A stretch of DNA of 64,000 bases from a virus. Shown one piece after another: positions 651 through 31,939 of this stretch; within the stretch, counting starts at the first letter, position 1; each line of letters begins with the position of its first letter. Position numbers and translations under genes: made by a program. The notes beneath the pieces were generated by a model. The model worked only from the letters and a program-made list of their open reading frames with translations. It did no database searches and was not told the DNA's origin. The stretch lies in IMG/VR virus record IMGVR_UViG_3300025120_000020; one strand, given 5' to 3'.

Positions 651-1283
651 TCAACTCGACCACTTCTCGATAGTGTCCCTGTTCCCCTTAGATCGAAGCA
701 TTTCACCCATAGAGCGGGAAATAACCTCAGCCTCAACCGGAGTGTCAGGCTGATCTGGAACCTCTTGCAACGCCTCCTCCGCCTCTTCTTCATCTCCTTC
801 CAGCATGGCTTCTGCTGGCACCTCAATAATTTCACCGTCTTCCTCCTTTGATTTATCCAGCATCCTACCAACCGCTCGTCGTAGCGCGGGAGACTTTTGC
901 ATCTTGTTCTCCAAGGTTTGCATAGTGTCTACGTTATGGACAATAGCCTCAGTGCGGGCTACAGGCATTCCTATCTGGTATTGCAACAGCAATTTCAAAG
1001 AATCGAGTTGAGTTTTGAAGTCAGGAACCTCAAGCGGTCGTCCTCCAACCGCCATGGTCTTTGTCGCCTTTAGTAGACCCTCCAGCTTATCTACGACTTT
1101 TTTGGGGCCAAATCTCGTTGCAAGTTCTTCAATAACTTTCGTCGAGAGGTCAGCGGGAGTAATCGACAACCTTCCCTCCTCTGCGGCGCTCTCGATTTCT
1201 TTTGTTTTTACGTGAACAGTTGTTGTTTCCTCAGGCTCTCCTCCCTCCGGAGGGGGAGTGAGAGTTGGTGCTGAATTACTCAT
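651..1283 (-). CDS. hypothetical protein, possibly terminase small subunit
   Basis: Start MSNSAP at 1283 is supported by a leaderless promoter; helical PDFKTQLDSLKLLLQY segment and acidic tail resemble small terminases. Confidence 0.45.
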   Translation of the reverse strand: MSNSAPTLTPPPEGGEPEETTTVHVKTKEIESAAEEGRLSITPADLSTKVIEELATRFGPKKVVDKLEGLLKATKTMAVGGRPLEVPDFKTQLDSLKLLLQYQIGMPVARTEAIVHNVDTMQTLENKMQKSPALRRAVGRMLDKSKEEDGEIIEVPAEAMLEGDEEEAEEALQEVPDQPDTPVEAEVISRSMGEMLRSKGNRDTIEKWSS

Positions 1284-1290
1284 TGCAACG

Positions 1291-1319
1291 AGGCTATCTG
1301 TATGATTTAATAATTGCAA
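1291..1319 (-). promoter_or_regulatory. sigma70-like promoter TTGCAA-17-TAGCCT, 7 nt before ATG 1283
   Basis: Seen directly; lies in a divergent intergenic region with two TTGCAA copies (1283, 1314). Confidence 0.55.
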
Positions 1320-1336
1320 GCCTCCAACCACTGACC

Positions 1337-2161
1337 ATGTCTACACCTCAAAGAATGTCAATGTCCCTCCCGACCGCGCCAACAAATCTCTTCAGCCTAT
1401 CCTCTGGGATAAACAAAACGCGAGACAGCAGGGATCTTCCCGGCGCAACTGGGAATAATCCCAATCCAGTTAAAAACACGGGGCCGTCAGGAGCAAGAAA
1501 CAGAGGATTTGAACGATTTATGGAGTTTGAGCGGAGCGGTCGCGGGGGTCGTAGGCTTTCTGGAAAAGATAAAAAATCGGGAGCGGTTTACACCGAAGGC
1601 TCATTTAAGGGCATGACCCAAGGACAAGCTGACAATAGGCAGCGGCCTCTCCTTAGGAATAAATGGAATAGCATGACCTCGGAGCAGCAAGATCAATACC
1701 GTGATGTGACTGCTGCTGATATGGAGTCAGATCGCCAAGCTGCCATTCAAGCCGAGCGCGACAAGGCGATGGTCGCGAGAGAGGCTGATACGCAAAGGCG
1801 TCAAGACGAGGAAAGGTTTAGGATGGAGGCCGACAAGCGAGATAGAGAAGAAGCCAAAAAAAACGCAGCGACTGAATTTAAGCCTAACACTGGCCAAGGC
1901 TCCGGTGATAATGTTGTCGAAAACAAAAAAGCTCCGGTTACAAACCCAAGTTCTCCTCCTGCCGAGACTGCTTCTGCAAAAGTTAGCCCCGTAAAACAGG
2001 TGGGAACAATAAGCGGAATCTCGGCTAAGCGTTACAATGAGACAACCAAGGATCAGCGAGACTTTGCGGATCAAAATAGCGGAACGGCTACACGATTAAA
2101 AAATAAGTCCCAAAAAATGGCGGAAGATGCCAAAAAGAAAAAAGAGGAAGACAACGCCTAA
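1337..2161 (+). CDS. hypothetical low-complexity protein, possible internal virion protein
   Basis: ATG MSTPQ at 1337; hydrophilic/coiled-coil; immediately upstream of the giant gene. Confidence 0.6.
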   Translation: MSTPQRMSMSLPTAPTNLFSLSSGINKTRDSRDLPGATGNNPNPVKNTGPSGARNRGFERFMEFERSGRGGRRLSGKDKKSGAVYTEGSFKGMTQGQADNRQRPLLRNKWNSMTSEQQDQYRDVTAADMESDRQAAIQAERDKAMVAREADTQRRQDEERFRMEADKRDREEAKKNAATEFKPNTGQGSGDNVVENKKAPVTNPSSPPAETASAKVSPVKQVGTISGISAKRYNETTKDQRDFADQNSGTATRLKNKSQKMAEDAKKKKEEDNA

Positions 2162-2182
2162 AAACTTTCGCAACAAAATCTG

Positions 2183-5100
2183 ATGCCTGATGATTCCACT
2201 TATAGAGAGGACGCCCCAACTCCGGACCCCTACAAGGGATTCAGCGAAGGCGTAGACCGCCACCGACGAGCCATTGAGGCTACCCGCCGAGCGGCAGAAT
2301 ATGATCGAGCTGCACGAAGAAAGGTGCAGGCAGATCAGGAAGCAGAAGCTGAGCGCATTGCAAAACAGCGTCAAACCGAACGCAATGCAGCTTTTCAAGA
2401 TCAAGCCAAAGAAGAAGGATTTGGCGACTACACCTACAGTGACGCGGAGGGGGACAAGCAATCAGCGCTGACTGAAGAACAAACTCAAGCTCTTAGGCGA
2501 GAAAATCAGGAAGAGATTGCAAGGGAAGCCGCAAAAAGCGCCGCAGCATTCCGCAAAACTGATCTAACTCGGGAGCATGGTCGAGTTAAGTCTGGACTTC
2601 TTACTAAGGATAAATACGAGAAAAAGCTGGGAGCTATCGAAGCTGCTGAACAAAACCTCAGCTATCTTGAGAGCGAGCGCAACGATAACCTAATCAGCTC
2701 CGATGAATACCAAGCTGACTTTAATAGAGTGAGCCAAGAGCTTAGCACCCTCCGGGGGGAGGTAGAGGCTGACGACACAGCCCGCGCTAAGGCTGAAGAG
2801 CTTCAAAAAGAAATATATGCTCAAGAAGATATTGTATCTGATCGTCCAGATTTGCCGACTGCAATCCCTGATGACCCACAGGAAAGAATAGATTATATCG
2901 ATTCATACAACGCCCGAACAAAAAGAGCCAATGCTGCATCCAAAAATCTTTCTATCAATGTTGCGGAGCAATACGAAGCTCACACTAAGCGAGTAGATCA
3001 GCTAAAGCAAAGTTTTAATGAGTGGCAATCGCAAGGCGTAACGCCAGAGGAGTTCAATGAGGCTCAGAATGTGCTGAGAGGGGAATTTGCAAAATCTCAA
3101 TCTCAATATTTGCAAAATCGTTTTGATTACGATCAAGGCATAAAGAGACTTGAGGACGATCAGGAGGATTTGGAATTACTCCGCCCTTACGTCATGGACG
3201 TAATACAGGCGCAAAAGGCATTTGGAATAAAGACAGAAAAAGAAGCCAAGGAGAAGCTGGAACGAGATCGTGCAGAGATCAAGAAGCCCTTGGAAGATAC
3301 GGCCAAGGATTACGAAAGAGTCTCCAAAGAAGCAGCAGAACAGCAGCGCGAGGTAATCAAACTCTTGGACCTTCCACCTGCTAAAACCAAAGAGGAGCAG
3401 GATGAGCGATTGAGCCAAATACAAGAGGAAAGCGACAAAGCACAAGCCACAGCATCGCTGGCCCTTGGTCGTCTTGCTGATGGTCGCCAAAAAATCATGG
3501 CCGCTCTCGTTAATGACAAAGGAAGCAATGAGATTCTTGAAGCCATTGCTTTCAAAGGAGCGGAGAAGCGTTCAGATGGATGGTATGTTCCTGTCGTAGG
3601 AGACGGTAAACTCACTGAAAAGTTCGATACTACAGGTGGAACGTGGTATGAAAATATTGGAAATGTTGCGTTGGGGGCGCTTGCAAACACTGGCGAGTTC
3701 CTTGGGCAGTCAGTTTACAAAATGCAACCCGGAACGCAGCGAGTTAAAAGCCACGTTCTCAACAATCTCCAAGAGGAGCTTGGTTTTGACGACAGTCAAA
3801 TGTGGGAAATGATGTATGACATCAGATATGAGAACGGAGAATGGGAGGACGGAGAAAAAGCTCGCGCTCTTAGCGACGGAAAGATCATTTTTAATCCTTC
3901 CTTAAACATCCTCGACAAAGAAACGTATGACGACGCGGTAAAATCCAGCGGTGCTCCGAGTTGGATGGTGGATTATATGACCAAAGAGAGCATAAGGAAT
4001 GACTACATGTCAACCTACGCCTCGACGGCTCAAGAAGACATGATGCTCGCTTCCGCGCTTCCGGGAGGCATGCCGACTCCGAGCGAATGGTATATGGAGC
4101 ACTACGGCAAATCCGGGAAAAACCCAGATCACACCCAGTGGATGAGAGAGTATCTCGACCAGTATGCTCCTGAGAATCAAAACTTTGGCCAAAGAACGCG
4201 GGCCAAAGCCTCTCTTGTATTAAGGGCTTACTCTATTGGTGGAGGCAAGGTGGTTCAAATGTTTACCGGAGCTGCTGCGATAGGAGGTTCTTCAAACGCT
4301 CGCGACTATGCGTCCACTCTTCAAGATCAGATGGAGGAGCAAAGGCGGGGTCTTGATTCTCAGGGAGGAGAATTTTTCGGCTCTGGTATAGTAAGAACTG
4401 TCCTTGAAGAAGGTCCTTCCGTTTTGCTTACTCTCCCGTTTGGAGGAGTTGGAGGAGGCATCGCTAAATCAGCTTTTGGTCAAGCAATCAAAAAAGGGGC
4501 TCTCAGAGTCCCTACTAAGTATGTCGGAGAGAAGGGTGTTCAGCAATACCTCCAGAGGGTAGGGACAAAAGGAGCACTCGCTGGATCTTCTGTTGGAAGT
4601 GGTTTCCAATCTCTGGGCTTGTCGTTTCAGCATTATTACGATCAAGCGTTAAAGGTAGCGGAAGAGAAAAAAGGAGGCCCTCTCACAGAAGCTGAGAAAG
4701 ACGAGTTAGTAAGCAGCCCAGCCGTTAGGGGCCGATCAGTCGCTGCTGGATTGCTCACCGCAACGATCACCAGAGCTTTTGGGGCCCAACTTCAAAGCAC
4801 GGTTCTCAGAGGGATGTTTGGTGGCAGCAAGACACCACACACTATTCGTGATGTAATGCGCTATATTAAGCGCAATGGACCGAAAGGGATGGCTGACGCA
4901 GAGATCAAAAAGCGTCTAAAAAGTTCTCTTTTTGATGTTCTAAAAGCATCAGGGATTGAGGGTCTTGAGGAAGCCACTGATGAGTTTATTGCTGCAATGA
5001 TGCTCGACCCAGAAGCGAGTCTTGAGTCTGCTTTTGATGTAGCAGTGCAGGCAGGCAGGGCTGGCATAATTCTTGGTGGAGCCAGTAAAATTGCTATGTC

Positions 5101-8100
5101 CTCTTTTTCATCGGGAGTCACTTCGGCAAACGCTTCTGACCCCGAGGTTGCATTGGAGGCCCTCAAGGATTACTACGGAAACGACGTTGACATTACTCAG
5201 ACAGATGTTGAGGAAGCTCTGACTTTTATCAACTACAAGGCGGGCCAAGATGGCGACGGTGACGTTGGAGTAGAGAAGCTCGGCACCGCCATTAAGACCA
5301 ATAAGCAACTCGCCTCACAGGAGGCAGAAGCCGTTTCTGAGCTAACAAGAGCCACTGATGCTGGCGATAGCGCTCGCGCCAAACAGGCTCAGAGAGCCCT
5401 CGATAAGACCAGAATTGCCCGAGCTGTTATCAAGGTTGCAAACGGCCAAGACGTAAACGATCTGACTTTCACCGAACAGAAAGCGATGAACTCCAAGCTG
5501 GTCGATGGCTCTCCAGTAATGGAGATGGTCGATGGACAGATTGTTCTGACTGATTCAGCAATAAATTTAGTCGCCAAGCAAAATTCCGATGCCGCCAGTC
5601 AACTTATTGGCCTTTCCGAAAGCGGTCGCCGCCAAGAGATCCGTCAGCAGGCCAAAGAACGCGCCGAAGCTACTCCCGAAGCTACTCCCGAAGCTACTCC
5701 CGAAGCTACTCCCGAAGGTGCTCCCAAAGGTGCTCCCAAAGGTGCTCCCGAAGCTACTCCCGAAGCTACTCCCGCAACTGAAGCTCCGAAGCCTCTCTCT
5801 CCAGAGAAAGTTGCAGAGAAAGTTGAACGCCGGAAAAAGGCTGGCGTCACCGGAAAGAAAGACGAGAAAATCCTCACCCAAAAAGGTGAGGGCTACAAAA
5901 ACAAAAATACAGCGAAAGTAAGACTCAAAGCCTTAAACGAAAACCCTGCTGATTTTAATTTTGTGGAGGTTGAAAACGGGAAGATAGTCCCAGTTCGCAA
6001 AGCTGACAAGACGACTCCTTATGAAGGTGAAGCCCAAGCCCAAGCCGCTTCAGCAAAACCAGAGGAAGTAACTGGCTCGTCCAAGCCTAAGTGGCGCATT
6101 GGCATTCAGAAGCCGGGAGGGGCTGTTCGCTATGTAGAGGTCGAAGGAAACACCCGTGCGAAAGCCGCCGCCGAAGCCGCCAAGCAGGCTCGCAAAGGAG
6201 AAACGGTAAACCCCTCTCTTGCAGAGCAAATCAAAACGCCCACAGAAGCTAAGGCGCCCAAAAAAGAGGCGCCAGCAGCCAAAAAAGCTGCCACGAAAAA
6301 AGCTGCCACGAAAAAAGCTGCCACGAAAAAAGCTGCCACGAAAAAAAGGACAACAGCGGGAGACGCAAAGGGGGGTATAGGTGTTTTTGGTTCTGGATTA
6401 ACCGAGGCGGCGCACAGAGAAGGACTCAAAAAATTCAAGAGTGGAGAAAAAACAAAGCTCACCACTAAGGCTGAAATTGAAGCGGCCAAGAATGACCCTA
6501 ACTTCATCTTAGGTGAAGACGGAACCATCTTTGCCATAAAAGATTTGGATACTGGTAAGTGGGTGCATGCATCTACTTCCGAAGTCTCTCAGTCTTCTGC
6601 ACCCTATATCGGACAGAGCGCTGAACTCGATAAAGCAATAAAATCCGACAAAACGGGGCTTATTTCCAAAGTTCTCAAGGCGGCAAAAGATGCCGGGATA
6701 CAAATCAACTACTTCAAAAATCCTGCTGAAGCGGAGGAGAAGGGCATCTTGCCCCCACTGAAAACGAATCGGAAAAGGAGAAAAAACGTGCAACCGCGGG
6801 CACACGCTTGGATAAAGGATGACTATACTTTCGGGATTGTTATTTATGACCGTGGGATAAAAGGCAAGAAGAATGCTCAAATCTTACAAACTCTCAAGCA
6901 TGAACTGAAGCATGTCGCGGGATTCCTATACGAAAACACTCCTGAAGGTAATGCTCTTGCGAACAAAATCCAACAGATGTATGACCCCAGTAGCCCGAAT
7001 TATGACCAGAAGGCTGATGATTTGGGTCGAAAAGAATATCCCAGTTGGGATGCTCTTAGCAACAGAAATAAGTTGCGCGAGCAGGCAAGAGCTTTGCTTG
7101 AGGCTGAGGAAGATAACACTTTGAGCGGACTTCGGGACAGCCTTCAGCTTAAAAAATACGTCAAGGCATTCCTTGAATTCCTTGCGGAAATCTTTTCCGC
7201 AAACGGCAACCCTGATTTTGCTAAATTTCTTCGCAAGACCAAAGAGAATCTTGATGCAATAATGTCTGGTGACCTCACTGTTGAATCGACCAGCAAAAAG
7301 AAAAGCAAAACTAAATCCAATGAAGACGTTGAAGGAGACGTGGCACAAGCAATGCCAGCAACTCCTAAGGATGTGCAATTCGCCGATGTGGAAGAGGCGA
7401 TTAGTGGCATGTTCACAAGTATCGAAGAGGCTCCCACTAAAGACGACATCCAAAAGATGCGTGACGACGGTGAGAGCAAGGAGGATATTGAAAAAGCAGA
7501 GGCTAAGATTCTCCCTGAGGGAACCAGCTTCCGACTCGACGAAAAGGGTAGATTGATCATCAGAAAGGATCTTTCTCGCGAGAAAGCTCAGGTAACCCTA
7601 ATCAAAGCGCTTGCGCAACAAGCATCTCGAAAGGCGCTAACCGAATCCGAAGGAGAGTCCCTCTATTCTCTGATGCCGCCTAATCTTCGCAAGATGGTCC
7701 TAAAAAGAGCATCTAAAGTTACGGGCAAAGAGGTCAGCCCGTCTGAGGCTGCTCAATACCTCGTCACACACCTTCTTACTGATAAGACTCTTGCCGCCAC
7801 AGTCCGTGCGCAGGCTCGTAAAAGCACCAATCCCCTCAAGCAAGGCAAGGGGATTACTGGCAGCGAACGAAAATTCCTTGGCATGATTCTTCGTCTTCTC
7901 CGTGGGTTTACCAATAACGTGCGGAAGATAATGGATCGGCTCTCGACGAAAACTGGTCGCCAGCAGCTACAGTTTTATGAGAACTTAGCTCAGTCTATTC
8001 TTATTGACCTTACCGATGCAAGGGCTCTTTCGTCTCTTGGTATTGCGCTCCCCCAGACTCGGCTCACAAGCCCGTCTGATGTTGTTCTTCCGCCAAATGT

Positions 8101-11100
8101 CAGCAAAAAAAGAGGGGGCTACATTGTGGAAATGCCGAATGGCCGAGAAGTTACAGCTCGCACCCGGAATGAGGCGGTCGATATTAACGCGACAAAATTT
8201 GAATCTCAGTTCGACCGAGACATGCGTATTGCTCTGGCGCTTGGGGTTAAAAGAGGTGGTCTTTCAATAGAAGAACTTGAAGCTGACTTAAAGCTGACGA
8301 AGCGGATGGTCGAAGCAGTTTCCGGCAAGATTGGACTGAGCAAAGAGGCCATCTACGCGATGATTCAAGCTCGTTTTGCGGGAGGAGAGACTAACAGTAT
8401 TTTGGATGCCTTTGCTAAAGGCAAGGTTGAGGCAGCATCAGCCCTTCAGCAAAAAATGGAGGTGCTCAAAAGTATCGGAAATCAGGTGGACGGAACTTTG
8501 CAAGAAGGGTCGATCACTGAATTTGCCCGACGAGCACTGGCTGCAAGCCGAGCTTCTACTCAAATCGGCAGCGACTTGGATGGCAACCCCGCTGCAATCG
8601 AATCTATGCGAGCCGCACAGCGACGGTTCATAGAGATTGCAGGAGGGAAATCTTCTAAAAAAGTCCTGTCTTCCCTTAAAGCACTGGACACTAAAAAGAT
8701 GGGTCTGGTTGACCGCCTTGGGGCGTTGCAAACTGAGGATTTCTTAGTTGGCGAAGTTCCTACAAAAGAGTCTCAATCTATCCTTGATGAGATGTCCAAG
8801 GTGGATGACGAGATTGCAAAAGTCCTTAGCGGCGAGGCTTTCTCAGGAGCCTACAAAAAAGCCCTTTTGCGAAATACCGACACTAAGGGTCTTGCCGGGA
8901 GAGGGAATATTGCTGGTCTTGTGGCCTTCACCGAAGCAGCCGATGCGGGAACGGTGATGCATGAGTTTGTTCACGTTCTCCAGAGCCTTAGCGATCCTCG
9001 GACGGGAAAAAGTCTTCTCGATTCCGCTCTCGGATCAAGAGGTGTGCAGAAGATGGAGAAGTGGATTCAGAGAGTCTATCCGGGTGTTGACGAGGGGACC
9101 TACAACTGGAATGAGGCCCTCGCTGAGGGAATGGAGGCATGGTTGCGTGAGGGAGGAAAGGAAGATGCAGAACTTGCAGATGAATTTGCAACCGTTGCAG
9201 GCGCGGTTGGCCGAGCATACAACGGGATGAAAGATCAGCCGGGCTTCGATCTTAATGACGATGCTCGCGAAGTTCTGGAGTCGCTGCTATCACTCGATCC
9301 TGTTGTCGATAACCAAATGCAGGCCAATATTACTCGGGTCCAGCAAATATTCCAAGGCGTCTCGGCTAACACAAAGTTCTTTGGGGACGACATGATTCTT
9401 CCTCTTAATACGGGAGGAATGCAAGTTGGCTTCAAGAAGGAGAAGCCCGCAAGGAATCTCGCCAAAAATCTTGGCAAAAGGTATGAGGATGTGCGCGTAG
9501 CTCAGCACGAAGGCAAATACTACGCCGTCATCACCAGACCGGGGCTCCAGTTTGACCAAAAGGAGTTGAGAATAAAGCTAATTGCAAACCTGCAACAAAG
9601 GGCTCGCAAAGTTAAGATTTCCAAGGTGAGTAAAGCGCGTAACGGCTTCCGAGTTGGAACGATGCTAAATACGAGCAAGCCAGCAGGAGGAAAGAAAAAT
9701 GCCGCTCTCCCCGATCTTGGCGACAACATTACACGGAATAGGATTCCTGAGGAGACCTACAGAAAGCATATGGCCAAGTTCAACTACGGCCACCTTCCAA
9801 AGGCGATCACTGACATCACTGACCCGGACGAGAAGCGTGATGCAGCCATTGCATTCATGAAGGATAACCTCATCGCATTGCACGACGAGGCTAAGTTGCA
9901 ACTCGGGGATGACTTCTACCGGATGGCAACTCAATGGTATGACGGGGCCAACAAGATCGCCAAGCAAATGGCGGCCAAGTATAATGTCTCGGAAGAGCAG
10001 GCCGCAGGAGTAATTGCTGTGCTCTCCCCCCAGAGGGATTGGTTCATGAATCTTGGTCTGGCCGAGAGGGTTCTTGATGTGCTTGCAAACAATAAGCAAA
10101 CCATCATCAACGTGAAGCGGTTTGGTAAAGCGATGGATGACATTGTTGCAAGTGCCTCTTTCAAAGCGACGAGATCGCCCGGCATGACTGATGAGCAGTG
10201 GGCTAAAAGAAAGAGAGGGTTGGCGATTTCAGCAAAGAGTGAACGCCGAAAGATTCTAAACAAACTGAAGGGCAAGTCGATTGCAAGCCTTGCAAACAAC
10301 CCAACAGCTCAAGCGTGGGCGGTTCGAGTTATTGCTCACGGCAAGTTTGGAACTGACTTCCGGGTGTATTCTCCAGATGGGCAGAAGATGCATGTTCAGA
10401 GAAATAACCCTTCCAAATCCCAGATTAAGAAAGGAGAACTCGGGAAACCGTCCAAGATCCAGTGGGGAGGAACTGGTTCCATCTCAGATGCTGTCTCGAT
10501 CTTTGAAGATGGCGCTCGCGTTAATATTAGCCGCCGACTGGGCGCGGAGCACAAAGTCCGAAGCTTCTATAACAACATCATCGCTCCGAACTCGGATATG
10601 GGTGACGTAACTATCGACACCCACGCCGTCGCTGCCTCTCACCTGATGCCATTTGGTGCGTCCGCGATTGAGGTGAAGCACAACTTTGGAGCGATGGGGA
10701 AATCTAATACGGGAGTCTCCGGAGGATACCACCTCTATGCTGACGCCTACCGTCAAGCAGCGGAGGAAGTTGGACTGATGCCACGCCAGATGCAATCGAT
10801 CACATGGGAGGCTATCCGGCTTCTTTATCCAGATTACATGCGCCGGGGAGTTCAGAAAACTAATTTGGTTGCAAAGAACAAATCTCTTTGGCAGGGTCCA
10901 TTCAGTTATGGCGAAGCAAGAACAGGAATCCTCCGAGGAAGCAAACTTCATAGCCCTGAGTGGCTTGGGAGAGGACGAGATCAGTCAGCTCAGACGAGCA
11001 CAGGCAAATTACAAAAAGGAGTTTCAGATGGATCTGACTCTGGAAGAAGTAGCAGGACTGGAGCTGGACGCGCCGGAAGAGGAAGAGGAGGAGTTCAACT

Positions 11101-19188: not shown

Positions 19189-19475
19189 GCCAAATCAATC
19201 CTAAGAAGCAAGCCTACGACACCGCACAGAAACTCGGCGAAGCCGTCGAAGTCATGAGCAACTCAACCGGATGGAGGGAATACTTTATCCCAAAAATGGA
19301 AGAAAAGCGCGAGGAGGCGCAAGAAGCCATTAACAAGAAAGGCGTCGAGCAGCGAGAAGCAGATCACGCACGGGGGCTCATCGAGCTTGCTGACTATGTT
19401 ATTGGATACGGAGAAGAGAAAAAGAAGCAGGCTCTCACAATAATGCGGAAAAACACTACTGCGAAGTTGACTTAA
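19185..19475 (+). CDS. small helical protein downstream of portal
   Basis: ATGA overlap with portal; 96 aa helical with GW motif, like small post-portal proteins. Confidence 0.65.
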   Translation: MSQINPKKQAYDTAQKLGEAVEVMSNSTGWREYFIPKMEEKREEAQEAINKKGVEQREADHARGLIELADYVIGYGEEKKKQALTIMRKNTTAKLT

Positions 19476-21541: not shown

Positions 21542-21593
21542 ATTTGCAACTTTAATCTTGCAAATTGCAAATGAAAGCCTAAAAATTACTTCC

Positions 21594-22874: not shown

Positions 22875-22950
22875 TCTCCCCATTCTGCCACAATCTGTGT
22901 AAGCCGTTGATCCTTAATCAACAAAAAAAAACAACTAACACAAAAAAATT

Positions 22951-24522
22951 ATGCCATTCCATACTTCAAATGTAACAGGACAAGGATTGGGCAACGCCCT
23001 CTCAAATGATCCAGCAAACGCCTTCGGTGATGCTGCGTCAGTACGCGAACTCTGGCGCAAAGGTGTCGAGGTCTATGAACAGACCACCGACTTCTTTGCT
23101 CAAATGGAGGGCGGCTCCGACGCAATCATCGAAACCATCGCCGACACCACCAAGGGTCGGGGGCAGAAGATTACCTTCACCCAGATGGCTGGCCTCTACA
23201 ACGAGCCTAAACACGGCGACGAACTGTTCAACGACGGGGACGACTTTGAGAGCATTAAGCTCCACAGTTATGATCTCTCAGTTGACTTCCTTCGTCACGG
23301 GGTTCGCTACACAGAGCGAGCTGAAGAGTTTATGGGGATGCGCGGCGAAATTACCGTCGGCATTCCTCGCGAACTCGGAAAGTGGATGGGCCGTCAGAAG
23401 AGCGAGAAGCTCTTTATGATGTTCCTTCACAAAGGCTCCGCTGAAAACCACATTTTTGCTGGTGACAAAGCCGGATACAACAGCCTCGTATCTGCCGACA
23501 CCCTCGACTATGACACCATTGTCGCGGCAAACACTCAGCTTGCTCGCCTTAATGGTCAGCCAGCTAAGGTCGGAACCGATCAAGCAGGAAACCCTATCCA
23601 CCGCTATTGCACTGTTGCAACTACCGACACCCTGTTCTCTTTGGAGCAGGATTCTGACTACAAGTCATTGCAAGAAAATGCTGGACCTAACTCTTACAGC
23701 AATGTTCTGTTTAAGGGTGGTTACACCGACATCCGGGGTAACATCATCAAGAAATACAATCCCATCGACCATGACGGATTCGGCGCGATTGCATCTCCTC
23801 TGAACCCGAAAGCTGACATCGGTTGCGATACTACCAACGGATTCGCCACTTCCACTATTAGTTCTGGTGCAGGAACAGCAAACACCATCTACGCTGGTGG
23901 ATCGAAAGCGGCTGGGGCTCTGTCTGGAAAGGCTTACTTCAAGTATTTCCCGCTTTACCAGTTCAAGTTCCTTGCAACTGAGACAATGGCTCTGTCAGAC
24001 TCGCTGGCCTACGCCGATCTCAACACCGCTGGTGGCTTCTACGTCGCTGTGGTGAACGCTCCGAACGCTGCGGTAGATCCGGGTAAGATTGGTTATTACC
24101 ATGTAACAGCCAACGACGGCAACAAGCTGACGGTAACAAGCGGTAACGCTGGTCGATTCAACGGAACAACCGATACGACCAACTTTACCAAGCTTACCGC
24201 TAAGCTCGGCGCCGCTGTAGTGGGAACTAACACCACCCAAACCCACGTTGCTGGGACATCTACGGCATACTTCATTAACGAAGTCGGCGTTCCTATCGGC
24301 CACACGCTCTTCCTTGGAAAAGCTGCGGCTCGCCGGGGATACGGCAAATACCGCAACCAGCGTTCGTCTGACGATCATGAGGGCGGTTTCGTTAAGGACA
24401 TCTTCGTCACTTCCGTCTTCGGACAGGAGCACTGCGAGGATGCAGCAGGTCGCAAGCCCGGATATCTTGTCATCAGTCACGCTGTGCAGTATGCTGGGGT
24501 TCCGTTCGCTAACATCAGCTAA
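22951..24522 (+). CDS. major capsid protein (N4-gp56/DUF4043-like) with insertion domain
   Basis: KGRGQKITF, VDFLRHGV and TLFLGKAA motifs; A-rich leader; follows scaffold. Confidence 0.8.
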   Translation: MPFHTSNVTGQGLGNALSNDPANAFGDAASVRELWRKGVEVYEQTTDFFAQMEGGSDAIIETIADTTKGRGQKITFTQMAGLYNEPKHGDELFNDGDDFESIKLHSYDLSVDFLRHGVRYTERAEEFMGMRGEITVGIPRELGKWMGRQKSEKLFMMFLHKGSAENHIFAGDKAGYNSLVSADTLDYDTIVAANTQLARLNGQPAKVGTDQAGNPIHRYCTVATTDTLFSLEQDSDYKSLQENAGPNSYSNVLFKGGYTDIRGNIIKKYNPIDHDGFGAIASPLNPKADIGCDTTNGFATSTISSGAGTANTIYAGGSKAAGALSGKAYFKYFPLYQFKFLATETMALSDSLAYADLNTAGGFYVAVVNAPNAAVDPGKIGYYHVTANDGNKLTVTSGNAGRFNGTTDTTNFTKLTAKLGAAVVGTNTTQTHVAGTSTAYFINEVGVPIGHTLFLGKAAARRGYGKYRNQRSSDDHEGGFVKDIFVTSVFGQEHCEDAAGRKPGYLVISHAVQYAGVPFANIS

Positions 24523-24556
24523 TAGCAGGGCTTCCACATCGTGAGCCCAAAATCTC

Positions 24557-24596
24557 ACCGGGGCCTTGGTTGCAAGCTTGCAACTGGGGCCCCGGT
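24557..24596. terminator. long stem-loop after the capsid gene containing two TTGCAA sites
   Basis: ACCGGGGCCTTGGTTGCAAG-CTTGCAACTGGGGCCCCGGT, complementary with G-U pairs; no long U tract. Confidence 0.55.
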
Positions 24597-24607
24597 TCTG
24601 CTATAAT
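24578..24607 (+). promoter_or_regulatory. sigma70-like promoter TTGCAA-18-TATAAT with extended -10 (TGn)
   Basis: Seen directly; ATG at 24614 lies 6 nt after the -10 (leaderless). Confidence 0.65.
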
Positions 24608-24613
24608 ATGGCC

Positions 24614-25012
24614 ATGGCCATAAAAACAGCAGCAGTATTGGAACTTCCCGGTAAAGGAAACTTCGCCCCTAATAAGTTCGGAAGTCGTTACGGCGCCTTC
24701 ATTAAGACTAATATTCCGGGACAAAAAAAAGCCATTTGGATATTCAAGAGCAAGCTGTATGACGTAACCAAGCAGGAAGACATTGACGAATTTAATGAAA
24801 TGTGCGCCAACGTAATTCCGAATTGCTACAAAGTCATAAAACTGACTCCTACTCCTCGACTTATTGTTCTTCCCGAAGAAGCTAAAAAACCCACAAACAA
24901 AAAGGGCGACGAGCCCGAAACCAATCAAACTAAAGAGCCTAAAAAGAAAAAGGGTAAGGCATCCGCCTCCCCGACGCCCCCGGCTCTTGCAATCCCTCCC
25001 TCCGGAGGATAA
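24614..25012 (+). CDS. hypothetical protein
   Basis: ORF following the promoter; basic C-terminus; alternative start at 24608. Confidence 0.6.
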   Translation: MAIKTAAVLELPGKGNFAPNKFGSRYGAFIKTNIPGQKKAIWIFKSKLYDVTKQEDIDEFNEMCANVIPNCYKVIKLTPTPRLIVLPEEAKKPTNKKGDEPETNQTKEPKKKKGKASASPTPPALAIPPSGG

Positions 25013-25018
25013 AGCACC

Positions 25019-25783
25019 ATGACTCTCCTTGAACTTCGTGACAATGTCGCCCGCGCCCTCTTTCTTGAACAGGAGGCCACCGTTCCTGATTACATTTGGA
25101 ACGATGTGACCACTGCAATCAACTCAGGGTTGCAACTGATGTTCTCCTCGCCACTCGACTACTTCCGCAAAGAGGAGATAGACGTTGTTTTTGGCGTAGG
25201 CGAATCTGAAAAGAACCTCTACAACGAAGCTCAAGTCCAAGAGGTAATCGGCCCCTGCTGGATTCCAGCGGAAGATAGCCGAGAGTTGCATCAAATCACC
25301 GATCAATCGGAGTTTAACCAATTTTTCCAGCGATTCTACGGAAAGAACGAGACCGACGCCATCGCTAACGGAGCACCCGAGGCTCTTATTTACCTGATTC
25401 GCACCCGACGATCCCGCTCCGAGGATAGCGGGAAGGACGCTTCGGCCTGTTTTCTTGCAATCAAACCTACCCCGACAGCAGCTATCACTGTTCGTCTTTT
25501 AGTGGCTAAATCAGCTCCCGTATTCTCTAAATCTACAATTAAGAACCTAACCGGAACCGAAGTTACCCCTGTCCCAGCCGATAAGGTAGAGACAATTCTT
25601 CTACCTCTATGCCGGATGTATGCAATGCGGTCACATTTCTTCTTTGAGAAGGACAAGAGCCCTCTATTTGAGCAAGATGCCGCTCGGGCTATGCAAACCC
25701 TACAAGTATCCGATCCAGAAAATGGAACTATGTCTCACATGTCCGAGCAGATGAAAAAGCAATCATCCCGAACAGCCCAGTAA
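25019..25783 (+). CDS. head-tail adaptor / tail tubular protein A-like
   Basis: MTLLELRDNV..AIN, P.P and L.L..M motifs of phage adaptors; position after capsid. Confidence 0.65.
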   Translation: MTLLELRDNVARALFLEQEATVPDYIWNDVTTAINSGLQLMFSSPLDYFRKEEIDVVFGVGESEKNLYNEAQVQEVIGPCWIPAEDSRELHQITDQSEFNQFFQRFYGKNETDAIANGAPEALIYLIRTRRSRSEDSGKDASACFLAIKPTPTAAITVRLLVAKSAPVFSKSTIKNLTGTEVTPVPADKVETILLPLCRMYAMRSHFFFEKDKSPLFEQDAARAMQTLQVSDPENGTMSHMSEQMKKQSSRTAQ

Positions 25784-25786
25784 ATT

Positions 25787-26686
25787 ATGACCGTCGCCCA
25801 ATTTTCCCAGCGCCTTGCAAGGTGGACTTCCTCCAAGACTCTCTCACAGATGCCTATAGAGGATCGACTTGTCTTAGTCGATTGCATTAACGCAGCGGTC
25901 TACAACTGGTTTGCTGCGGCTCCGGAGAGGATGCGTATGACGACAATTAGCCATTTGCTACGCGCCCCGGAGCAAGGAAGCGCCACTGTCACCGCTGGGG
26001 CTAACGATCTTACCGGGGTTACATTGCAAGATCACCACCTTGGAGGGTCTATAGAGTTTGATAACGAGCCAAACTTCAATGAAATCGTGTCGGTTACAGG
26101 AACTCCTAAAGTTTTGAACTCCTTCCGGAACTCTGGACTTCAGCAATACACAATCTACTTCGATACGATCATGGTCACTGATCACTTGATCAACCGAATT
26201 GCAAATCACCCTCGCATCCTTGATACAGGAGAAGAGCTATACCGGGACGACGAGGCTATGCGCTTTAAGGGGGCTGAGCGCCGAGGGTCTATCTTCAATC
26301 CAAACGCTCGTAGCATTGGATCTCCTTACCGCTACGTTTTCGAAAACACTGGTCTCTCGCTGCAAGATGAGGCTCGCGCAATGATTCGGATTGACCCTAT
26401 CCCTGATCGCGCTCTTACCATTAACTTTGATGCCGTTGTAGACGCTCCCACTCTGGAGGTGGATAGTATGAACGGCAGCGTGGACATTGCGGTTCCTGAC
26501 CAGTATGTTCTTCCGCATCTTCTCCCACTTGCGCTTAGCGACCTTGCCCTCACCCCGATTTGGAGTGGCAGTAACGCCGACTCCGCAATCGCTAAAGGAC
26601 AGGCTACTATAGCAAAAATCCAAGGACAAATAACTCAAAACCAAGGAGCGCCTCAAAACCGTTTCCGCACCCGCCCCGGCTGGTAA
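25787..26686 (+). CDS. second adaptor-like virion protein
   Basis: MTVAQ...DCINAA, IDPIPD and VP..Y motifs; paralogous pattern to the previous gene. Confidence 0.55.
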   Translation: MTVAQFSQRLARWTSSKTLSQMPIEDRLVLVDCINAAVYNWFAAAPERMRMTTISHLLRAPEQGSATVTAGANDLTGVTLQDHHLGGSIEFDNEPNFNEIVSVTGTPKVLNSFRNSGLQQYTIYFDTIMVTDHLINRIANHPRILDTGEELYRDDEAMRFKGAERRGSIFNPNARSIGSPYRYVFENTGLSLQDEARAMIRIDPIPDRALTINFDAVVDAPTLEVDSMNGSVDIAVPDQYVLPHLLPLALSDLALTPIWSGSNADSAIAKGQATIAKIQGQITQNQGAPQNRFRTRPGW

Positions 26687-26689
26687 ATT

Positions 26690-27076
26690 ATGATCGTCGA
26701 AGCAACAAAACTACAAGAAGCAATCCAGCAAGCACTGCGGGAGGTAAATGACTCCTGCCTTGCCCTCAGGGCCGAGGGCGTGACCGTATTACTTCCAGAA
26801 TCTATCGATTTTGAAGTGCGAATGGTGACCAATAGCGACATCAATGCCGTCCAACGAGCCGTCACCGAGGCTGAGGCTGATGGGGGCCAGACCGTCACCA
26901 CCCGCTCCCAGCTTTCTCCCGATACCGAACTATCGAAAAAAAGCGGTGAGAAATTTCAAACCGCGAGGACTGGAAGTGCTGGAAGCGAGAGAACCGAAAT
27001 TTCTCACCCGTCTGTTACAACCCAGCAGGGCGGATCAGACAACTCTGAGGAGAATGTTACTTACACATACGAATAA
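26690..27076 (+). CDS. hypothetical protein (Trypco2-like N-terminal half, long Ser/Thr-rich strand)
   Basis: LQEAIQQAL helix, IDFEVRMV strand, then 82 polar residues. Confidence 0.6.
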   Translation: MIVEATKLQEAIQQALREVNDSCLALRAEGVTVLLPESIDFEVRMVTNSDINAVQRAVTEAEADGGQTVTTRSQLSPDTELSKKSGEKFQTARTGSAGSERTEISHPSVTTQQGGSDNSEENVTYTYE

Positions 27077-27084
27077 TATAAGCC

Positions 27085-27387
27085 ATGGCAGATTTCAAAA
27101 TAACTAACCGGGACACTGATTCGAAGACAAACCGGGGATCAAAGTCTATTCAAAGCTATGGCTCGCAAACTGTCCGAGCCGTCACCTCAACTCCATCAGG
27201 ATACACCGAGACAAGGACTCAAATCGGAACCATTACTACCGACTCAACCACTAACCGTGGAGATGTTCGCGAGACCCGAACGACCACTGGTGTCTCAAAG
27301 ACTACCACCCAAAGCGAAGACAAGGGTGTCATCCTCAAGTTTCGCATTCCCATCCAACAAAAAAACCCAATTCAGCGTCAATCATGA
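27085..27387 (+). CDS. hypothetical Thr-rich protein (Trypco2-like C-terminal half)
   Basis: 81 Thr/Ser-rich residues followed by VILKFRIPI. Confidence 0.6.
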   Translation: MADFKITNRDTDSKTNRGSKSIQSYGSQTVRAVTSTPSGYTETRTQIGTITTDSTTNRGDVRETRTTTGVSKTTTQSEDKGVILKFRIPIQQKNPIQRQS

Positions 27388-27671
27388 CTTTGATTGCAAC
27401 AGCAATCTTGATCATCGCCATTTCAATTTTCATGATCTCAAGATCCAATAACCAGCACCTCGGCAACGGAAAAGGAGCACAAGGAACCGAAGAGCCTTGG
27501 GTTCTTGATACCGAATCTACTCCTTTCGAGCTTGCCCCTTGCGATCCCGCTAACTCCAAGCGCGGACATTCCCCCGCATGGCTTGAGACTAAAAACGATC
27601 TTGCCATCAAGGATGGCGCAGCGAGCGACAACAACTGGACGCTTTCTGGTGAAGACCTCAAACCAAACTAA
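27384..27671 (+). CDS. hypothetical protein with N-terminal hydrophobic segment
   Basis: ATGA overlap; TM-like N-terminus. Confidence 0.5.
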   Translation: MTLIATAILIIAISIFMISRSNNQHLGNGKGAQGTEEPWVLDTESTPFELAPCDPANSKRGHSPAWLETKNDLAIKDGAASDNNWTLSGEDLKPN

Positions 27672-27676
27672 CAAAA

Positions 27677-29632
27677 ATGGCCACTCCAAACATAGTTCCA
27701 AACTCAAATAACGAAGGTCGCCTTGGCCGCTCTGGCTTGCAATGGCTTGAAGTGCGAGGTCAGTCTATTTATCAGAACGGCAATCAGGTCGCGGACCTCG
27801 CGAGCCCTGCTTTTACCGGAAACCCAACTGCGCCAACGCAGTCTTCTTCAGATAATTCGACCAAGATTGCAACGACCGCCTTCGTCAAGAATGTGCTGTT
27901 TAATGATGGCTACCCCTTGTTTTCAGCTCACGCGGACCAAAGAATCCCGAAATATGTTACATCAAGTGGTAAATATGAGGACTCAGGCTACACATCCGCT
28001 GATTTCTTCAACCTCGCCAATGCAACCGGAACACTTACGAGCACTGGTAGTTTAATCGGACCTACTGGAGTTATTGGTGGTTCGTCAGACCTTCAAGATG
28101 ACATTTCCAACATCAACACTCGATTGGCTACTGTCGAAGGGGCGAGTCATGCCGCAGTTAGCCACACCCATGTCAGCGCCGACATCACTGATGCGAGCGC
28201 TACCGGAACTGCCAGCGTCCTTGTTCTCAGAGGCAGCACTGGAGAGGTAGTAGGGGGCAGCTCAGCCTCGACAGGCAATGGTATTACAGGTGACGCAACT
28301 GGAACACAAGGAATTGGAGTATTCGGGTCTAATATTGCTGGAGCAAGCGGAGCAGGGGGATCTTTTGTGTCCACAGCAACTTCCTCACCCGGCGCTGGCG
28401 TTATTTCCGAAATGAGCGGTAGCGCAACCAGACCAAACTTTTGGGGGTTTGGAACAGGCACTGGCAACTTTCTTGAATTTGCAGCCACTGCGGTTAGCGC
28501 GGCTCTTTTTTACATCACTAAGGCCGCTGAAATAGTCTGGGGGGTAGGAGCAAACACTAAAAAGATTGCTCCCGGAACGGCTACAGGAAACCGTGTTGCA
28601 ACTCTTCCTGACGCAACCGGGACTATTGTTCTTGGTGATGGTTCTGGAGTTACTGGTGCCACAGCTTTCAGAACCGCCATTGGCCTCGGAAGCTCATCCG
28701 ATCCCGAGTTCACGACTGTAGCAGTCGATGCAGGCACAAGCTCTGGATTGCTATTTGGATCTGGCGGGGCAAAGCTTGCATTGCAATCTGCCTCTTCCAC
28801 CACCACATACAGACTACCCTCTGGAGGGGGATCTGCTGAAAATCTTGTTGACGGAAAAGGGAATGGATTAACAGCCTCTAATTTCCGAACAGCCCTTGGG
28901 GTAGTTGCGGGCAGCGGCGGAACCATGACAGGAACGCTGATAATTAATCCTTCTTCGGGTTCGACCCAGTTGCAACTGACTGGAGCCAGCGGAAACACTG
29001 GAAGCATTATTTGCAATCCCGGTGGAGCAAGAACCTACACTATGCCCGACGCGACGGGAACCTTTGTTCTTGGAGATGGATCAGGAATTACCAGTGCTGC
29101 AAGTTTCAGAACCGCCCTTGGCGTTAGCCAAATCGGCTCCGATGTATCTATCGGGTATGCCCACGCTTACATAAAGCAGACATCAGCAGCAGCGGTAGCT
29201 ACGCCTGCGAGTGCCTCCCCGTCCATTGTAGTAGCTCCTTCAGCCAGCTTCCTGATGAGCAGCACAAGCCTGTTCACCATCCCAAATGCCGCATCAGCAA
29301 GCCTCACCTATGGTGGAGCTGGGGCTGACTCGTCGGGATCTGCTAATTTTGTTGTGTCTGCGTCGGTTTCTGTAGAAGACGCTGGAGCTAATCACGAAAT
29401 TGAACTTTCCATTGGTAAGGGAGGGACTCAGCAAACTGGCACAGTAATGAAGGCTACATATGGCTTATCGGGCACCCCCGGAGCCGATACCTCCATAAAC
29501 ATTGCCACTCAAGGAATTGTCAGTTTAGCTTTCAATGATACCATTCAGGTAATGATTCAAGACAAGGATGGAACCCCGGCAGACCTCAAGGTTGCTATGC
29601 TACATATCTCAATTATGCCGTTAAATAGTTAA
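27677..29632 (+). CDS. tail fibre protein
   Basis: ASPAFTGNPTAPT..DNSTKIATTAFV fibre motif; Gly/Ser/Thr rich; internal repeats T(L/M)PDATGT.VLGDGSG...FRTA(I/L)G. Confidence 0.8.
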   Translation: MATPNIVPNSNNEGRLGRSGLQWLEVRGQSIYQNGNQVADLASPAFTGNPTAPTQSSSDNSTKIATTAFVKNVLFNDGYPLFSAHADQRIPKYVTSSGKYEDSGYTSADFFNLANATGTLTSTGSLIGPTGVIGGSSDLQDDISNINTRLATVEGASHAAVSHTHVSADITDASATGTASVLVLRGSTGEVVGGSSASTGNGITGDATGTQGIGVFGSNIAGASGAGGSFVSTATSSPGAGVISEMSGSATRPNFWGFGTGTGNFLEFAATAVSAALFYITKAAEIVWGVGANTKKIAPGTATGNRVATLPDATGTIVLGDGSGVTGATAFRTAIGLGSSSDPEFTTVAVDAGTSSGLLFGSGGAKLALQSASSTTTYRLPSGGGSAENLVDGKGNGLTASNFRTALGVVAGSGGTMTGTLIINPSSGSTQLQLTGASGNTGSIICNPGGARTYTMPDATGTFVLGDGSGITSAASFRTALGVSQIGSDVSIGYAHAYIKQTSAAAVATPASASPSIVVAPSASFLMSSTSLFTIPNAASASLTYGGAGADSSGSANFVVSASVSVEDAGANHEIELSIGKGGTQQTGTVMKATYGLSGTPGADTSINIATQGIVSLAFNDTIQVMIQDKDGTPADLKVAMLHISIMPLNS

Positions 29633-29635
29633 GCT

Positions 29636-30349
29636 ATGAAATTACACCTCGCACTAATATCACTTGCGGCTCTATTGCTTGCAAGTTGTGCGACTTCGGA
29701 CTCTAATACTTTAGCTCCGCAGGCTGTTCCGGTTCCCCCTCCTGTTGCAACACCAAATATTGGACGGGCTGAAGAGCAGGTTCGCAAGGTGGAGGACAAG
29801 GTGGAGGATGTTGAGGATGCTGTCCGCGAGGTAGGGAGCCAACTGGAAGCGGCAAGAGCTTCGGCTAAATCAATTGAGGCGATTGCGGAGGAGGCTTATG
29901 CCAACGGGCTTGAGGCGGGATCATCGTCAGCAACAGACCTCAGAGCCTTTGTTAGTGAGCTGAAGGATGAGCTTAAAAGGTCAACTGAGGCGCGTGAGTC
30001 AGCGATGGTTGCGCTCGCTCAGACTAAAGTGGAGCTTGATAAGACTGAGCAGGCTAATGCCTTATTGCGGACGCAAATAACAACCATGGACGAGCAGAAC
30101 AAAGCGCTCGCAGCAAGGCTCAATGAGGCCAACGCAAGGATCAGGATAGGAGTCAAGATTGCAAAAGAGCGTGACGAGGCGCTTACAAAGTTGACAAAAA
30201 CTGAGGAAAAGCTATCCGGAGCCCGTAAATATGTTATCGGCGTCTGGATTGCTATAGTCCTAATTATCTTATACGTTGTCTTGAAAGTTCTTATTGCAAC
30301 TGGCAAGATCACACCGCAAGGCCGAATGGCTTCATTTCTTTTCCGATAA
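29636..30349 (+). CDS. lipoprotein with coiled coil and C-terminal TM (candidate unimolecular spanin)
   Basis: Lipobox LLASC, Pro-rich linker, long heptad region, C-terminal VIGVWIAIVLIILYVVL. Confidence 0.6.
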   Translation: MKLHLALISLAALLLASCATSDSNTLAPQAVPVPPPVATPNIGRAEEQVRKVEDKVEDVEDAVREVGSQLEAARASAKSIEAIAEEAYANGLEAGSSSATDLRAFVSELKDELKRSTEARESAMVALAQTKVELDKTEQANALLRTQITTMDEQNKALAARLNEANARIRIGVKIAKERDEALTKLTKTEEKLSGARKYVIGVWIAIVLIILYVVLKVLIATGKITPQGRMASFLFR

Positions 30350-30367
30350 CCATAACAAAAACCAACC

Positions 30368-30649
30368 ATGCCCACACATCTAAACCAGACCATGAACGTG
30401 AAGCACAAGTTTCAGGATAGCGCTATTGATGTGCTAAACCTTTCTGCTGCTGGAGCCGCTCCCGGCTCAGACTCAACCTTCAATAGTGTTGCAAGAGGCG
30501 TAATCTGTCAAACGGCAGGAAACCTTGAAGTCACCACTCTTGCGGATCATAAAGTAGTCATCCCTGTGCCTGTCGGTCAGCTTTCTATTTGCATTAAGAA
30601 AGTTTGGTCTGCAAGCACGACCGCTCAAGGAGTTTCAGTTCTTTTTTAA
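30368..30649 (+). CDS. head-spike base protein (RcGTA Rcc01079-like)
   Basis: ARGV..AGNLEV..PVG.L.I.IKKV..TTA pattern. Confidence 0.6.
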   Translation: MPTHLNQTMNVKHKFQDSAIDVLNLSAAGAAPGSDSTFNSVARGVICQTAGNLEVTTLADHKVVIPVPVGQLSICIKKVWSASTTAQGVSVLF

Positions 30650-30652
30650 GTC

Positions 30653-31936
30653 ATGCCCGGATCATTGCAACTCGGATTGGGGATTCAATGCGCTCAGGGG
30701 TTTCCATCCTCGTTCGACCCCTTATCCCTCAACCCGATTCTCGCATTTGAGGCAGAGAAGTCGATGATGGCCCCGCTGGCTTCCGAGTCCCTTGACCTTG
30801 ATCCGGCTACTCCATCGACGTTGGATATTATTACGGCTACCAGAGCGGGAACAGCAACATTCACTGACGCGAGTGGTAACATCCAAACCGCCTCACCAAA
30901 TACAGTTCGTGTTGATCACGTTGGCGGAGTGCCTATGATGCTTATTGAGCAAGCAGCTACTAACTTGGTTGTTAATAGTGAGGACTTTAGTGGGGTTGAT
31001 TGGAGTTATAGTTCTAACGCGATAGAAGTAAGTGAATCCAATAGCACACTGTCTCCGACGGGGTTACAGACAGCAGACAAACTTTCAAAAACTACAACCA
31101 GAGTATATGCTTACGCACATACGAACCAAACAATAACTTCAGGCCAAGCTTACACTTGGTCTGTGTTTATGAAGAAAGGAACTCACGATATCGGTTACTT
31201 ATCCTTAAATCAAGGCGACACTGAATACAAAGCATTTTATGATTTAACAGGTGGCACAAGCGGAATGATTACTGGGAGTGCGACTTCCAGCATAGAAGAT
31301 TTTGGAAATGATTGGTTTAGATGTTCTTTGCGCGGCGTTTCTTCTACTTCTGATGTTTCTGTAAGGTTCAATTTTGGTATGTCTTACACTACCTCTGGTG
31401 AAAATTGGCCGTCAGGCAGTCAGGGAGCTGGGCTATATGTTTACATATGGGGAGCGCAGCTTGAACAAGGCACAGTCGCCACATCCTTTATCCCCACATC
31501 AGGAAGCGCGGTGACGCGAGCGGCTGATGATCTTGTGATTGATGGTAGTGACTTTACAAACTTCTACAATACAAGTGAGGGAACCTTTTACGTAGAATTC
31601 ACTCCAAAGGATATTACCGTTGGAGAGCAGTATTTGTTGCGAGGGGGAGACAGTAATCGTAGAATTATTTATTCTAACGGAAACCTTAGTAACATTCGAA
31701 GCTATGATGGAGCTAATATTTTAACAATGTCCAATGCTGTTGCATCAAATGTTCTCCACAGAATAGCGGTGTCTTTCGATAGTAATACCATGAAAGGATC
31801 ACTTGATGGAGAAACTGAAGTCACATCTAATCATAGTGGAAATCTTCTTACATCATCCCTGCTTCAGGTAGGCACAAACTACATAGGCCACGTCAAGCGT
31901 CTCATCTACTGGCCTCATCACTCAGACAATCTCTAA
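30653..31936 (+). CDS. head-spike/fibre protein with carbohydrate-binding-like domains
   Basis: TRAGTATF.D..G..R.DH..LIEQAATNL, WGAQLE.G..ATSFIPT..VTRAAD and LamG-like C-terminus. Confidence 0.7.
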   Translation: MPGSLQLGLGIQCAQGFPSSFDPLSLNPILAFEAEKSMMAPLASESLDLDPATPSTLDIITATRAGTATFTDASGNIQTASPNTVRVDHVGGVPMMLIEQAATNLVVNSEDFSGVDWSYSSNAIEVSESNSTLSPTGLQTADKLSKTTTRVYAYAHTNQTITSGQAYTWSVFMKKGTHDIGYLSLNQGDTEYKAFYDLTGGTSGMITGSATSSIEDFGNDWFRCSLRGVSSTSDVSVRFNFGMSYTTSGENWPSGSQGAGLYVYIWGAQLEQGTVATSFIPTSGSAVTRAADDLVIDGSDFTNFYNTSEGTFYVEFTPKDITVGEQYLLRGGDSNRRIIYSNGNLSNIRSYDGANILTMSNAVASNVLHRIAVSFDSNTMKGSLDGETEVTSNHSGNLLTSSLLQVGTNYIGHVKRLIYWPHHSDNL

Positions 31937-31939
31937 ACA

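Follow-up and report, generated by a model that had tools for sequence, protein, structure and literature searches.

The highly iterated palindromes (HIPs) of cyanobacteria, i.e. HIP1 (GCGATCGC) and its alternates, go along with cognate methyltransferases, and their origin has been modeled as a repair bias (Elhai 2015, PMC4390886). Among phages, Chi-rich lambdoid genomes carry a short word at high density, with Chi being clustered terminally and shared with the host genome in phages that lack a recombination module of their own (PMC12315714). In this study, we describe the palindrome TTGCAA in a 64,000-nucleotide stretch of the virus record IMGVR_UViG_3300025120_000020 (the window, which here always means this whole stretch), where an earlier note, made by reading the sequence, had pointed to an excess of the word in the first 30.7 kb. 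Phage genomes are a textbook case of palindrome avoidance. Full-text searches of the literature turned up no account of TTGCAA, or of any palindrome that is over-represented in phage genomes, and the AGTACT/CAGTACTG words of Rak2-like jumbo and other enterobacterial phages are other words, in unrelated phages with other hosts. TTGCAA is a lineage-specific DNA word that is maintained by selection genome-wide in a family of uncultured marine phages of approximately 55–65 kb.

An exact search found 70 copies of TTGCAA in positions 1–30,700 of the window (2.3 per kb), none in 30,701–33,900, and 18 in 33,901–64,000, the last number being at background level (approximately 16 expected). The count of about 68 made by eye in the earlier note was thus nearly exact, with every position it listed being present, and its observation of a gap at 30.7–33.9 kb followed by a near-background AT-rich 30 kb was likewise accurate. 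In the first block, TTGCAA ranks first in frequency among all 4096 hexamers, against an expectation of approximately 13 under a dinucleotide model and approximately 34 under an order-3 model, and it is the single top outlier of all 6-mers (z = 22, order-1 model), the next words being its own overlaps. When codons were shuffled synonymously within genes, 12.4 ± 3.2 copies were obtained (maximum 22 in 1000 shuffles), compared to 61 observed coding sites. The sites lie on both strands and in different codon phases, as had been noted before, and each phase is enriched (20, 39 and 3 sites in phases 0, 1 and 2, with 4.1, 7.2 and 1.2 expected). While approximately 87% of the sites are intragenic, about 8 lie within or overlap just 783 non-coding bases, so that the non-coding density exceeds the coding density. 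Since synonymous shuffling does not remove the enrichment, which moreover extends to every phase, to either strand and to the DNA between genes, it acts at the level of DNA and not via codons or peptides. An artifact of composition, codon usage or dipeptide usage, or a word that is just one of many equally enriched ones, has next to no chance of accounting for these data; phase 1 (xTT-GCA-Axx) does hold most of the sites, but the shuffle, the enrichment of all three phases, the lone position of TTGCAA among the 6-mers, and the even higher intergenic density all speak against such an origin.

The word is a bare hexamer, as no flanking position carries information, and being its own reverse complement it has no orientation, which sets it apart from the asymmetry of Chi-type words. 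An extended palindromic 8-mer, GTTGCAAC, was considered as the true word and was rejected, because it covers merely 10–16% of the sites. TGCA outside of TTGCAA is not strongly purged (98 sites, approximately 124 expected), and the enrichment is therefore no by-product of TGCA avoidance. The one-mismatch neighbors of TTGCAA show no clear depletion.

Relatives were collected from IMG/VR by capsid and portal searches, yielding 31 loci from many different samples, and no DNA or capsid-protein match to a cultured relative was found among 50,697 phage records. All relatives with at least 63% capsid identity are enriched, carrying 1.2–2.9 TTGCAA per kb, and TTGCAA is the commonest hexamer in nearly all of them; in a relative with 44% identity (L020) the enrichment is absent (1 site in 8 kb). 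One relative, G002, is complete (64.9 kb, uniformly 50–60% GC), encodes a DnaB, a primase, an SNF2 helicase and CobS/CobT-like proteins of its own, and carries 171 TTGCAA along its whole length. Synonymous shuffling of G002 gave 33.2 ± 5.0 copies compared to 154 observed, with the early/replication, giant-gene and late modules each being enriched; the corresponding values were 23.7 and 112 for G004, and 14.1 and 74 for G005. Across the window, G002, G004 and G005 the enrichment over synonymous shuffles is 4.6–5.2-fold. Some patchiness occurs in G003 (50.3 kb, 43% GC), in which TTGCAA is dense at 0–10 and 28–38 kb and nearly missing from the giant-gene region at 10–28 kb; the trait may have been lost or replaced there in part. 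In L005, L010, L026 and L027, and in L017 and L018, another word is also very frequent, either CCAAGG/CCTTGG or CCCCGG/CCGGGG.

The sites are also conserved one by one. In codon alignments with G002 and G004, the window sites have a retention of 48%, compared to 7.7% for all other hexamers, and in G005 the retention is 35% (8.6% for control hexamers). The corresponding values are 87% and 63% in G006, which aligns with window positions 13,547–30,771 at 91% identity. Where all overlapped amino acids are conserved, the hexamer itself is kept in 85% of cases compared to 22% (p = 4e-6), i.e. orthologous sites are kept through the choice of synonymous codons, which the earlier note had proposed to test in related phages.

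This conservation runs counter to a general purge of palindromes. The other 63 palindromic hexamers, when pooled, have an observed/expected ratio (O/E) of 0.37–0.51, with 22–34 of them being wholly absent, and TTGCAA is the sole exception with an O/E of 5.3–7.0, the opposite of restriction-site avoidance. GTAC is nearly absent in all members (0–6 sites in the first 30,700 bp of the window, G002, G004, G005 and G006), CTAG is absent from the window block and from G006, and AAGCTT is missing from G002, where 25.6 copies are expected. Two further palindromes, CCCGGG and TCCGGA, have an O/E of approximately 1.5–2.1 in G002, G004 and G005. The purge profiles of the two halves of the window differ, in that the purge of CCGG is confined to the AT-rich half and that of CTAG to the GC-rich half. 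Survival under the codon-preserving shuffle, conservation of sites in relatives, and enrichment against the general purge together bear out the DNA-level selection that was proposed initially, and, as selection holds the sites, something must read the word on DNA. Enrichment, site-by-site conservation and purge imply a sequence-specific reader acting on approximately 170 sites per genome.

The confinement of the word to the first block, as described in the earlier note, holds within the window but is not a property of one half of a genome, as complete relatives carry TTGCAA throughout and the AT-rich 30 kb belong to another lineage. The window has approximately 50% GC from position 1 to about 33.9 kb and approximately 36% GC from 33.9 to 64 kb. 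The AT-rich part (33,921–64,000, minus strand) belongs to a different phage of larger size and covers a module for replication and nucleotide sugars (Pol III alpha-like polymerase, ClpB-like ATPase, DnaB, UvsX, ThyX and glycosyltransferases), and from exactly 33,920 onward it aligns at 86–97% identity with the IMG/VR record G001, which is AT-rich throughout and past the junction continues with unrelated AT-rich DNA. In the AT-rich phage (33,921–64,000 and G001), GTAC has 0 sites, CCGG has 3–4 sites (O/E approximately 0.1), and AATATT is mildly in excess (O/E 1.7). The tandem-repeat stretch of the tail-fiber gene (32,965–33,168) is bridged by neither of two contigs from an independent ENA assembly, one of GC type that stops at 32,964 and one of AT type that begins at 33,169. 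Wherever they were compared, the two contigs match the window at 100% identity, and the repeat stretch between them is the probable point of mis-joining. We therefore consider it likely that the window joins two different, co-occurring phages by a figure-of-eight mis-assembly through a shared fiber repeat. A real cointegrate of the two phages is not favored, because a molecule of two complete genomes (approximately 53 kb and 99 kb) with two sets of structural genes would fit neither capsid. Whichever of the two applies, the AT-rich DNA does not belong to the lineage that carries TTGCAA. The tail-fiber gene has tandem repeats of approximately 72 nt (24 aa) at 33,038–33,240 of the window, and more copies of these occur in L298 (4314–4733).

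Imported DNA within the lineage lacks the word as well. The tail-fiber cassette with its 129-aa gene (30,707–33,920, plus strand; no TTGCAA) is common to the window and G006 only over the first approximately 50 aa of the fiber and is then swapped, and its nearest relatives sit in TTGCAA-poor phages (e.g. L292, with 2 sites compared to 6.1 expected). In G006 and G002, too, the longest stretches without a site fall on fiber genes, and segments of the giant gene that are common to G002 carry 1.96 sites per kb compared to 0.74 in variable segments. The lack of the word in imported DNA (the fiber cassette and the variable giant-gene segments) indicates that sites accumulate slowly in resident DNA. 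In this respect TTGCAA resembles the DNA uptake sequences (DUS/USS), which are genome-wide tags that accumulate in resident DNA and are absent from imports. DUS/USS are asymmetric chromosomal words of 9–12 nt for which the competence receptor that reads them is known. Phages with receptor-binding modules in common probably share hosts too, and the existence of phages with shared modules but without the word argues for a lineage-specific cause over a host-imposed one. A gene with approximately 80% identity at the protein level follows directly after the shared fiber module in both L292 (13,401–14,173), a TTGCAA-poor phage of approximately 49% GC, and G001 (40,294–41,063) of the AT-rich lineage, which suggests that co-infecting phages exchange genes. 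At its end, the 129-aa gene has an (IEE)n repeat.

Of the described systems, the HIPs are the nearest to TTGCAA. Both are short, exact palindromes that are the top over-represented words genome-wide, occur in coding DNA in all frames, are lineage-specific and replaceable, and are lacking from foreign DNA; the density of TTGCAA (approximately 2,300–2,600 per Mb) is similar to the top of the HIP range. HIPs, however, are GC-rich words of cellular genomes with cognate orphan methyltransferases, whereas TTGCAA is AT-flanked, belongs to a lytic-type phage lineage whose complete member G002 has no detected methyltransferase, and stands in genomes that otherwise purge palindromes, which is unlike the HIP case. 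HIP1 is thus the closest analogue, without its defining methyltransferase link.

An explanation along HIP1 lines would have TTGCAA as the target of a methyltransferase, either of the host or an unrecognized one of the phage, with a methylation-linked bias in mismatch repair or gene conversion creating and preserving the sites, or with dense methylation itself being selected as the mark. Methyltransferases and restriction enzymes typically recognize such bare 6-bp palindromes, cognate methyltransferases accompany HIP1 and the alternate HIPs, for which a repair bias has been proposed (PMC4390886), and such a bias would yield both the retention of sites and their slow accumulation in resident DNA. 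The earlier note had proposed to search the remaining genome for a methyltransferase, but a Pfam search of G002 (57 open reading frames and the giant protein) found neither a methyltransferase nor a Vsr domain. Furthermore, one-mismatch neighbors lack clear depletion, none of the few (12) single-nucleotide deviations found at orthologous sites is a C-to-T or G-to-A transition of the central GC, as would be expected from deamination repair, and phages with the same tail-fiber cassette, and hence probably the same host, do without the word. A methyltransferase target also gives no reason for the excess of closely spaced sites described below, and we regard methylation as an unlikely cause.

Site spacing is far from random. 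Pairs of TTGCAA 6–9 bp apart number 20, with 3.0 expected (a 6.5-fold excess), pairs 10–14 bp apart number 12, with 3.7 expected (approximately 3-fold), and no excess exists beyond 15 bp. Moreover, start codons have 12 sites at a distance of up to 60 nt, compared to 5.2 expected (2.3-fold). RHH (ribbon-helix-helix) dimers read tandem short repeats, such as the 8-bp met-boxes of MetJ and the 7-bp heptads of omega. Their operators repeat at a spacing of 7–9 bp, much like the 6–9 bp pair excess of TTGCAA, but they are local, compared to approximately 170 sites per genome here, and no RHH_1 or Arc match was obtained in strongly enriched genomes.

The word might also act in the manner of Chi, by modulating a host helicase-nuclease (RecBCD/AddAB-type) or another translocating defense enzyme, thereby protecting the linear phage DNA or recruiting host recombination. 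Chi and TTGCAA are both short words at high density in phage genomes, Chi being kept by selection since a protein machine reads it; TTGCAA is spread across the whole genome, Pfam recognized no recombinase in G002, and phages enriched in the Chi of their hosts provide a precedent (PMC12315714). Yet TTGCAA is palindromic, evenly spread without clustering near genome ends, and forms tight pairs with promoter-proximal placement that a Chi-like role does not predict. To our knowledge, all characterized Chi sequences are asymmetric and depend on orientation. Nor was a candidate host genome with an enriched word found among the matches listed or in 151 Verrucomicrobiota genomes, and a Chi-like function is quite unlikely.

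The intergenic site clusters seen in the earlier note are real, and several are conserved. In the first divergent intergenic region, two sites stand 31 bp apart (1283–1319), the left one overlapping the start codon of the minus-strand gene at 651–1283, and a spacing of 30–31 bp is conserved in G002 and G005. Three sites (21,544, 21,558 and 21,565; region 21,544–21,570) occupy the divergent region upstream of the scaffold/capsid operon, and the 14-bp-spaced pair among them is conserved in G002, G005 and G006. Two more (24,570 and 24,578, in the plus-strand feature at 24,570–24,607) lie atop a GC-rich hairpin after the capsid gene, the second being 18 nt upstream of a TATAAT (24,602–24,607) that directly precedes an ATG. 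A close pair, 12 bp apart, lies where the giant gene meets the portal gene (16,839–16,856).

These placements raise the question of a purely transcriptional role, in which TTGCAA would be a −35-like hexamer or the site of a phage transcription factor, with the intragenic copies being incidental. In the window, G002 and G005 alike, the post-capsid terminator hairpin is overlapped by TTGCAA-N16-18-TATA(A/C/T)T, which an ATG follows directly, and judging from this architecture a promoter with TTGCAA at −35 is credible there; both divergent intergenic regions hold several sites, and density is raised near start codons. In five genomes, however, TAnnnT at 15–19 nt downstream of the sites is at or below background on either strand, and, lacking a −10 partner, the bulk of the sites are not sigma-70 promoters. 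The idea that the word doubles as a −35 element thus stands for the conserved post-capsid site, and possibly for one or two other intergenic sites, and falls for the remainder. Approximately 87% of sites being intragenic, and these being themselves conserved at synonymous positions, a purely transcriptional explanation is very unlikely. The gene starts of the first block (1337, 21,594, 24,608 and others) have no Shine-Dalgarno sequence, with upstream regions that are A-rich or short, and some of the mRNAs may be leaderless, given how near several promoters are to the ATG.

The reading that we prefer, at a probability of roughly 40%, is that TTGCAA is read on double-stranded DNA by a dimeric DNA-binding protein encoded by the lineage. 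An exact 6-bp palindrome with zero flank information fits a compact symmetric reader, and the excess of tight pairs, the conserved spacings and the proximity to start codons fit a cooperative compact dimer better than they fit a methylation target or a Chi-like word. We infer that a protein reads the word, that the phage encodes it, and that its role would be to mark or handle the DNA of the phage, e.g. for protection, compaction or packaging. A small, symmetric and sequence-specific protein, encoded by the lineage or brought in with the virion, would bind TTGCAA at sites that act additively, approximately one per 400 bp, and neighboring sites 6–9 bp apart would allow cooperative occupancy. 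The few intergenic sites that overlap a −35 position, start codons or the terminator hairpin would let the reader modulate transcription there too, and a slow build-up of sites in resident DNA would leave recent imports (the fiber cassette, the variable segments of the giant gene, and the joined phage) without them. A more specific role, which we put forward as a doubtful candidate, is that of a distributed identity tag, by which a so far unrecognized protein, injected or encoded by the phage, would tell phage DNA from that of the host or of a competitor; this would help to shield the genome from translocating nucleases, to package it selectively or to compact it. Such a tag would be the equivalent, in phages, of HIP, DUS or Chi words, and would need no methylation.

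The lineage has conserved proteins of the helix-turn-helix (HTH) type, namely an XRE-type HTH_31 protein of 107 aa (3–200, minus strand; its N-terminal 66 aa are in the window and the rest lies to the left of it) and a LexA-type winged HTH of 166 aa adjoining DnaB. Together with a conserved 210-aa protein (651–1283, minus strand; 60% identity in relatives), which adjoins the site-bearing divergent promoter, they are candidate readers, as are a 66-aa neighbor and parts of the giant virion protein. The 210-aa protein has no Pfam, PHROG or PDB sequence match, and its AlphaFold model is of low confidence (pLDDT 61.5) and has no significant fold match, the very weak winged-helix rows (E > 1) not being counted as evidence.

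Several points weigh against a lineage-encoded dimer. No reader was found, and nothing ties any of the encoded proteins (XRE-type HTH, LexA-type or 210-aa) to the word. Searches of strongly enriched genomes for the RHH_1 (PF01402) and Arc (PF03869) families were negative, and the half-sites of classical HTH dimers usually have to be approximately 10 bp apart, unlike those of a contiguous 6-mer. Between lineages, turnover affects about half of the sites, and a bias in mutation or repair would be compatible with this as well. Finally, a host-encoded reader, or a host genome with the same word, is possible.

The search for a host bears on the last point. A portal alignment against 185k species genomes returned no prophage or host, and a search of genome and viral collections for three TTGCAA in a short span gave, among the matches listed, local tandem arrays or G002 and no genome-wide carrier. 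The TerL-like protein has relatives of 38–39% identity in Verrucomicrobiota prophages with the same layout of TerL and a giant polyvalent protein; TTGCAA enrichment is absent from these prophages, as it is from 151 Verrucomicrobiota genomes including Cerasicoccus (0.2 sites per kb), the apparent highs being AT-rich genomes with an O/E of approximately 1. The hint at a verrucomicrobial host with the same word was rejected on these prophages and 151 genomes.

The block that carries the word (1–30,700) is part of a marine phage of approximately 55–65 kb and 50% GC, and the GC-type piece is its structural region, encoding the giant polyvalent protein, portal, major head protein, and tail and tail-fiber proteins. 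The giant virion protein (2183–16,915, plus strand; 4910 aa, with DUF7178 and ART-PolyVal) holds 24 of the TTGCAA sites. It has 5,000–5,900 aa in relatives, with a Kinase-PolyVal besides in G002, and in a distant verrucomicrobial prophage relative (L301 12,865–21,872) a Sigma70_r2 match lies inside the giant protein. The window has no tRNAs.

As it stands, TTGCAA is a sharp compositional marker of its lineage, which detects imported DNA and assembly chimeras, as in this window. One palindrome is held at 5–7 times expectation and conserved at synonymous sites in genomes that have eliminated up to half of the other palindromic hexamers. Its reader, if found, could point to a novel means by which phage DNA is marked, protected or organized, and might illuminate the function of HIP1 in cyanobacteria.

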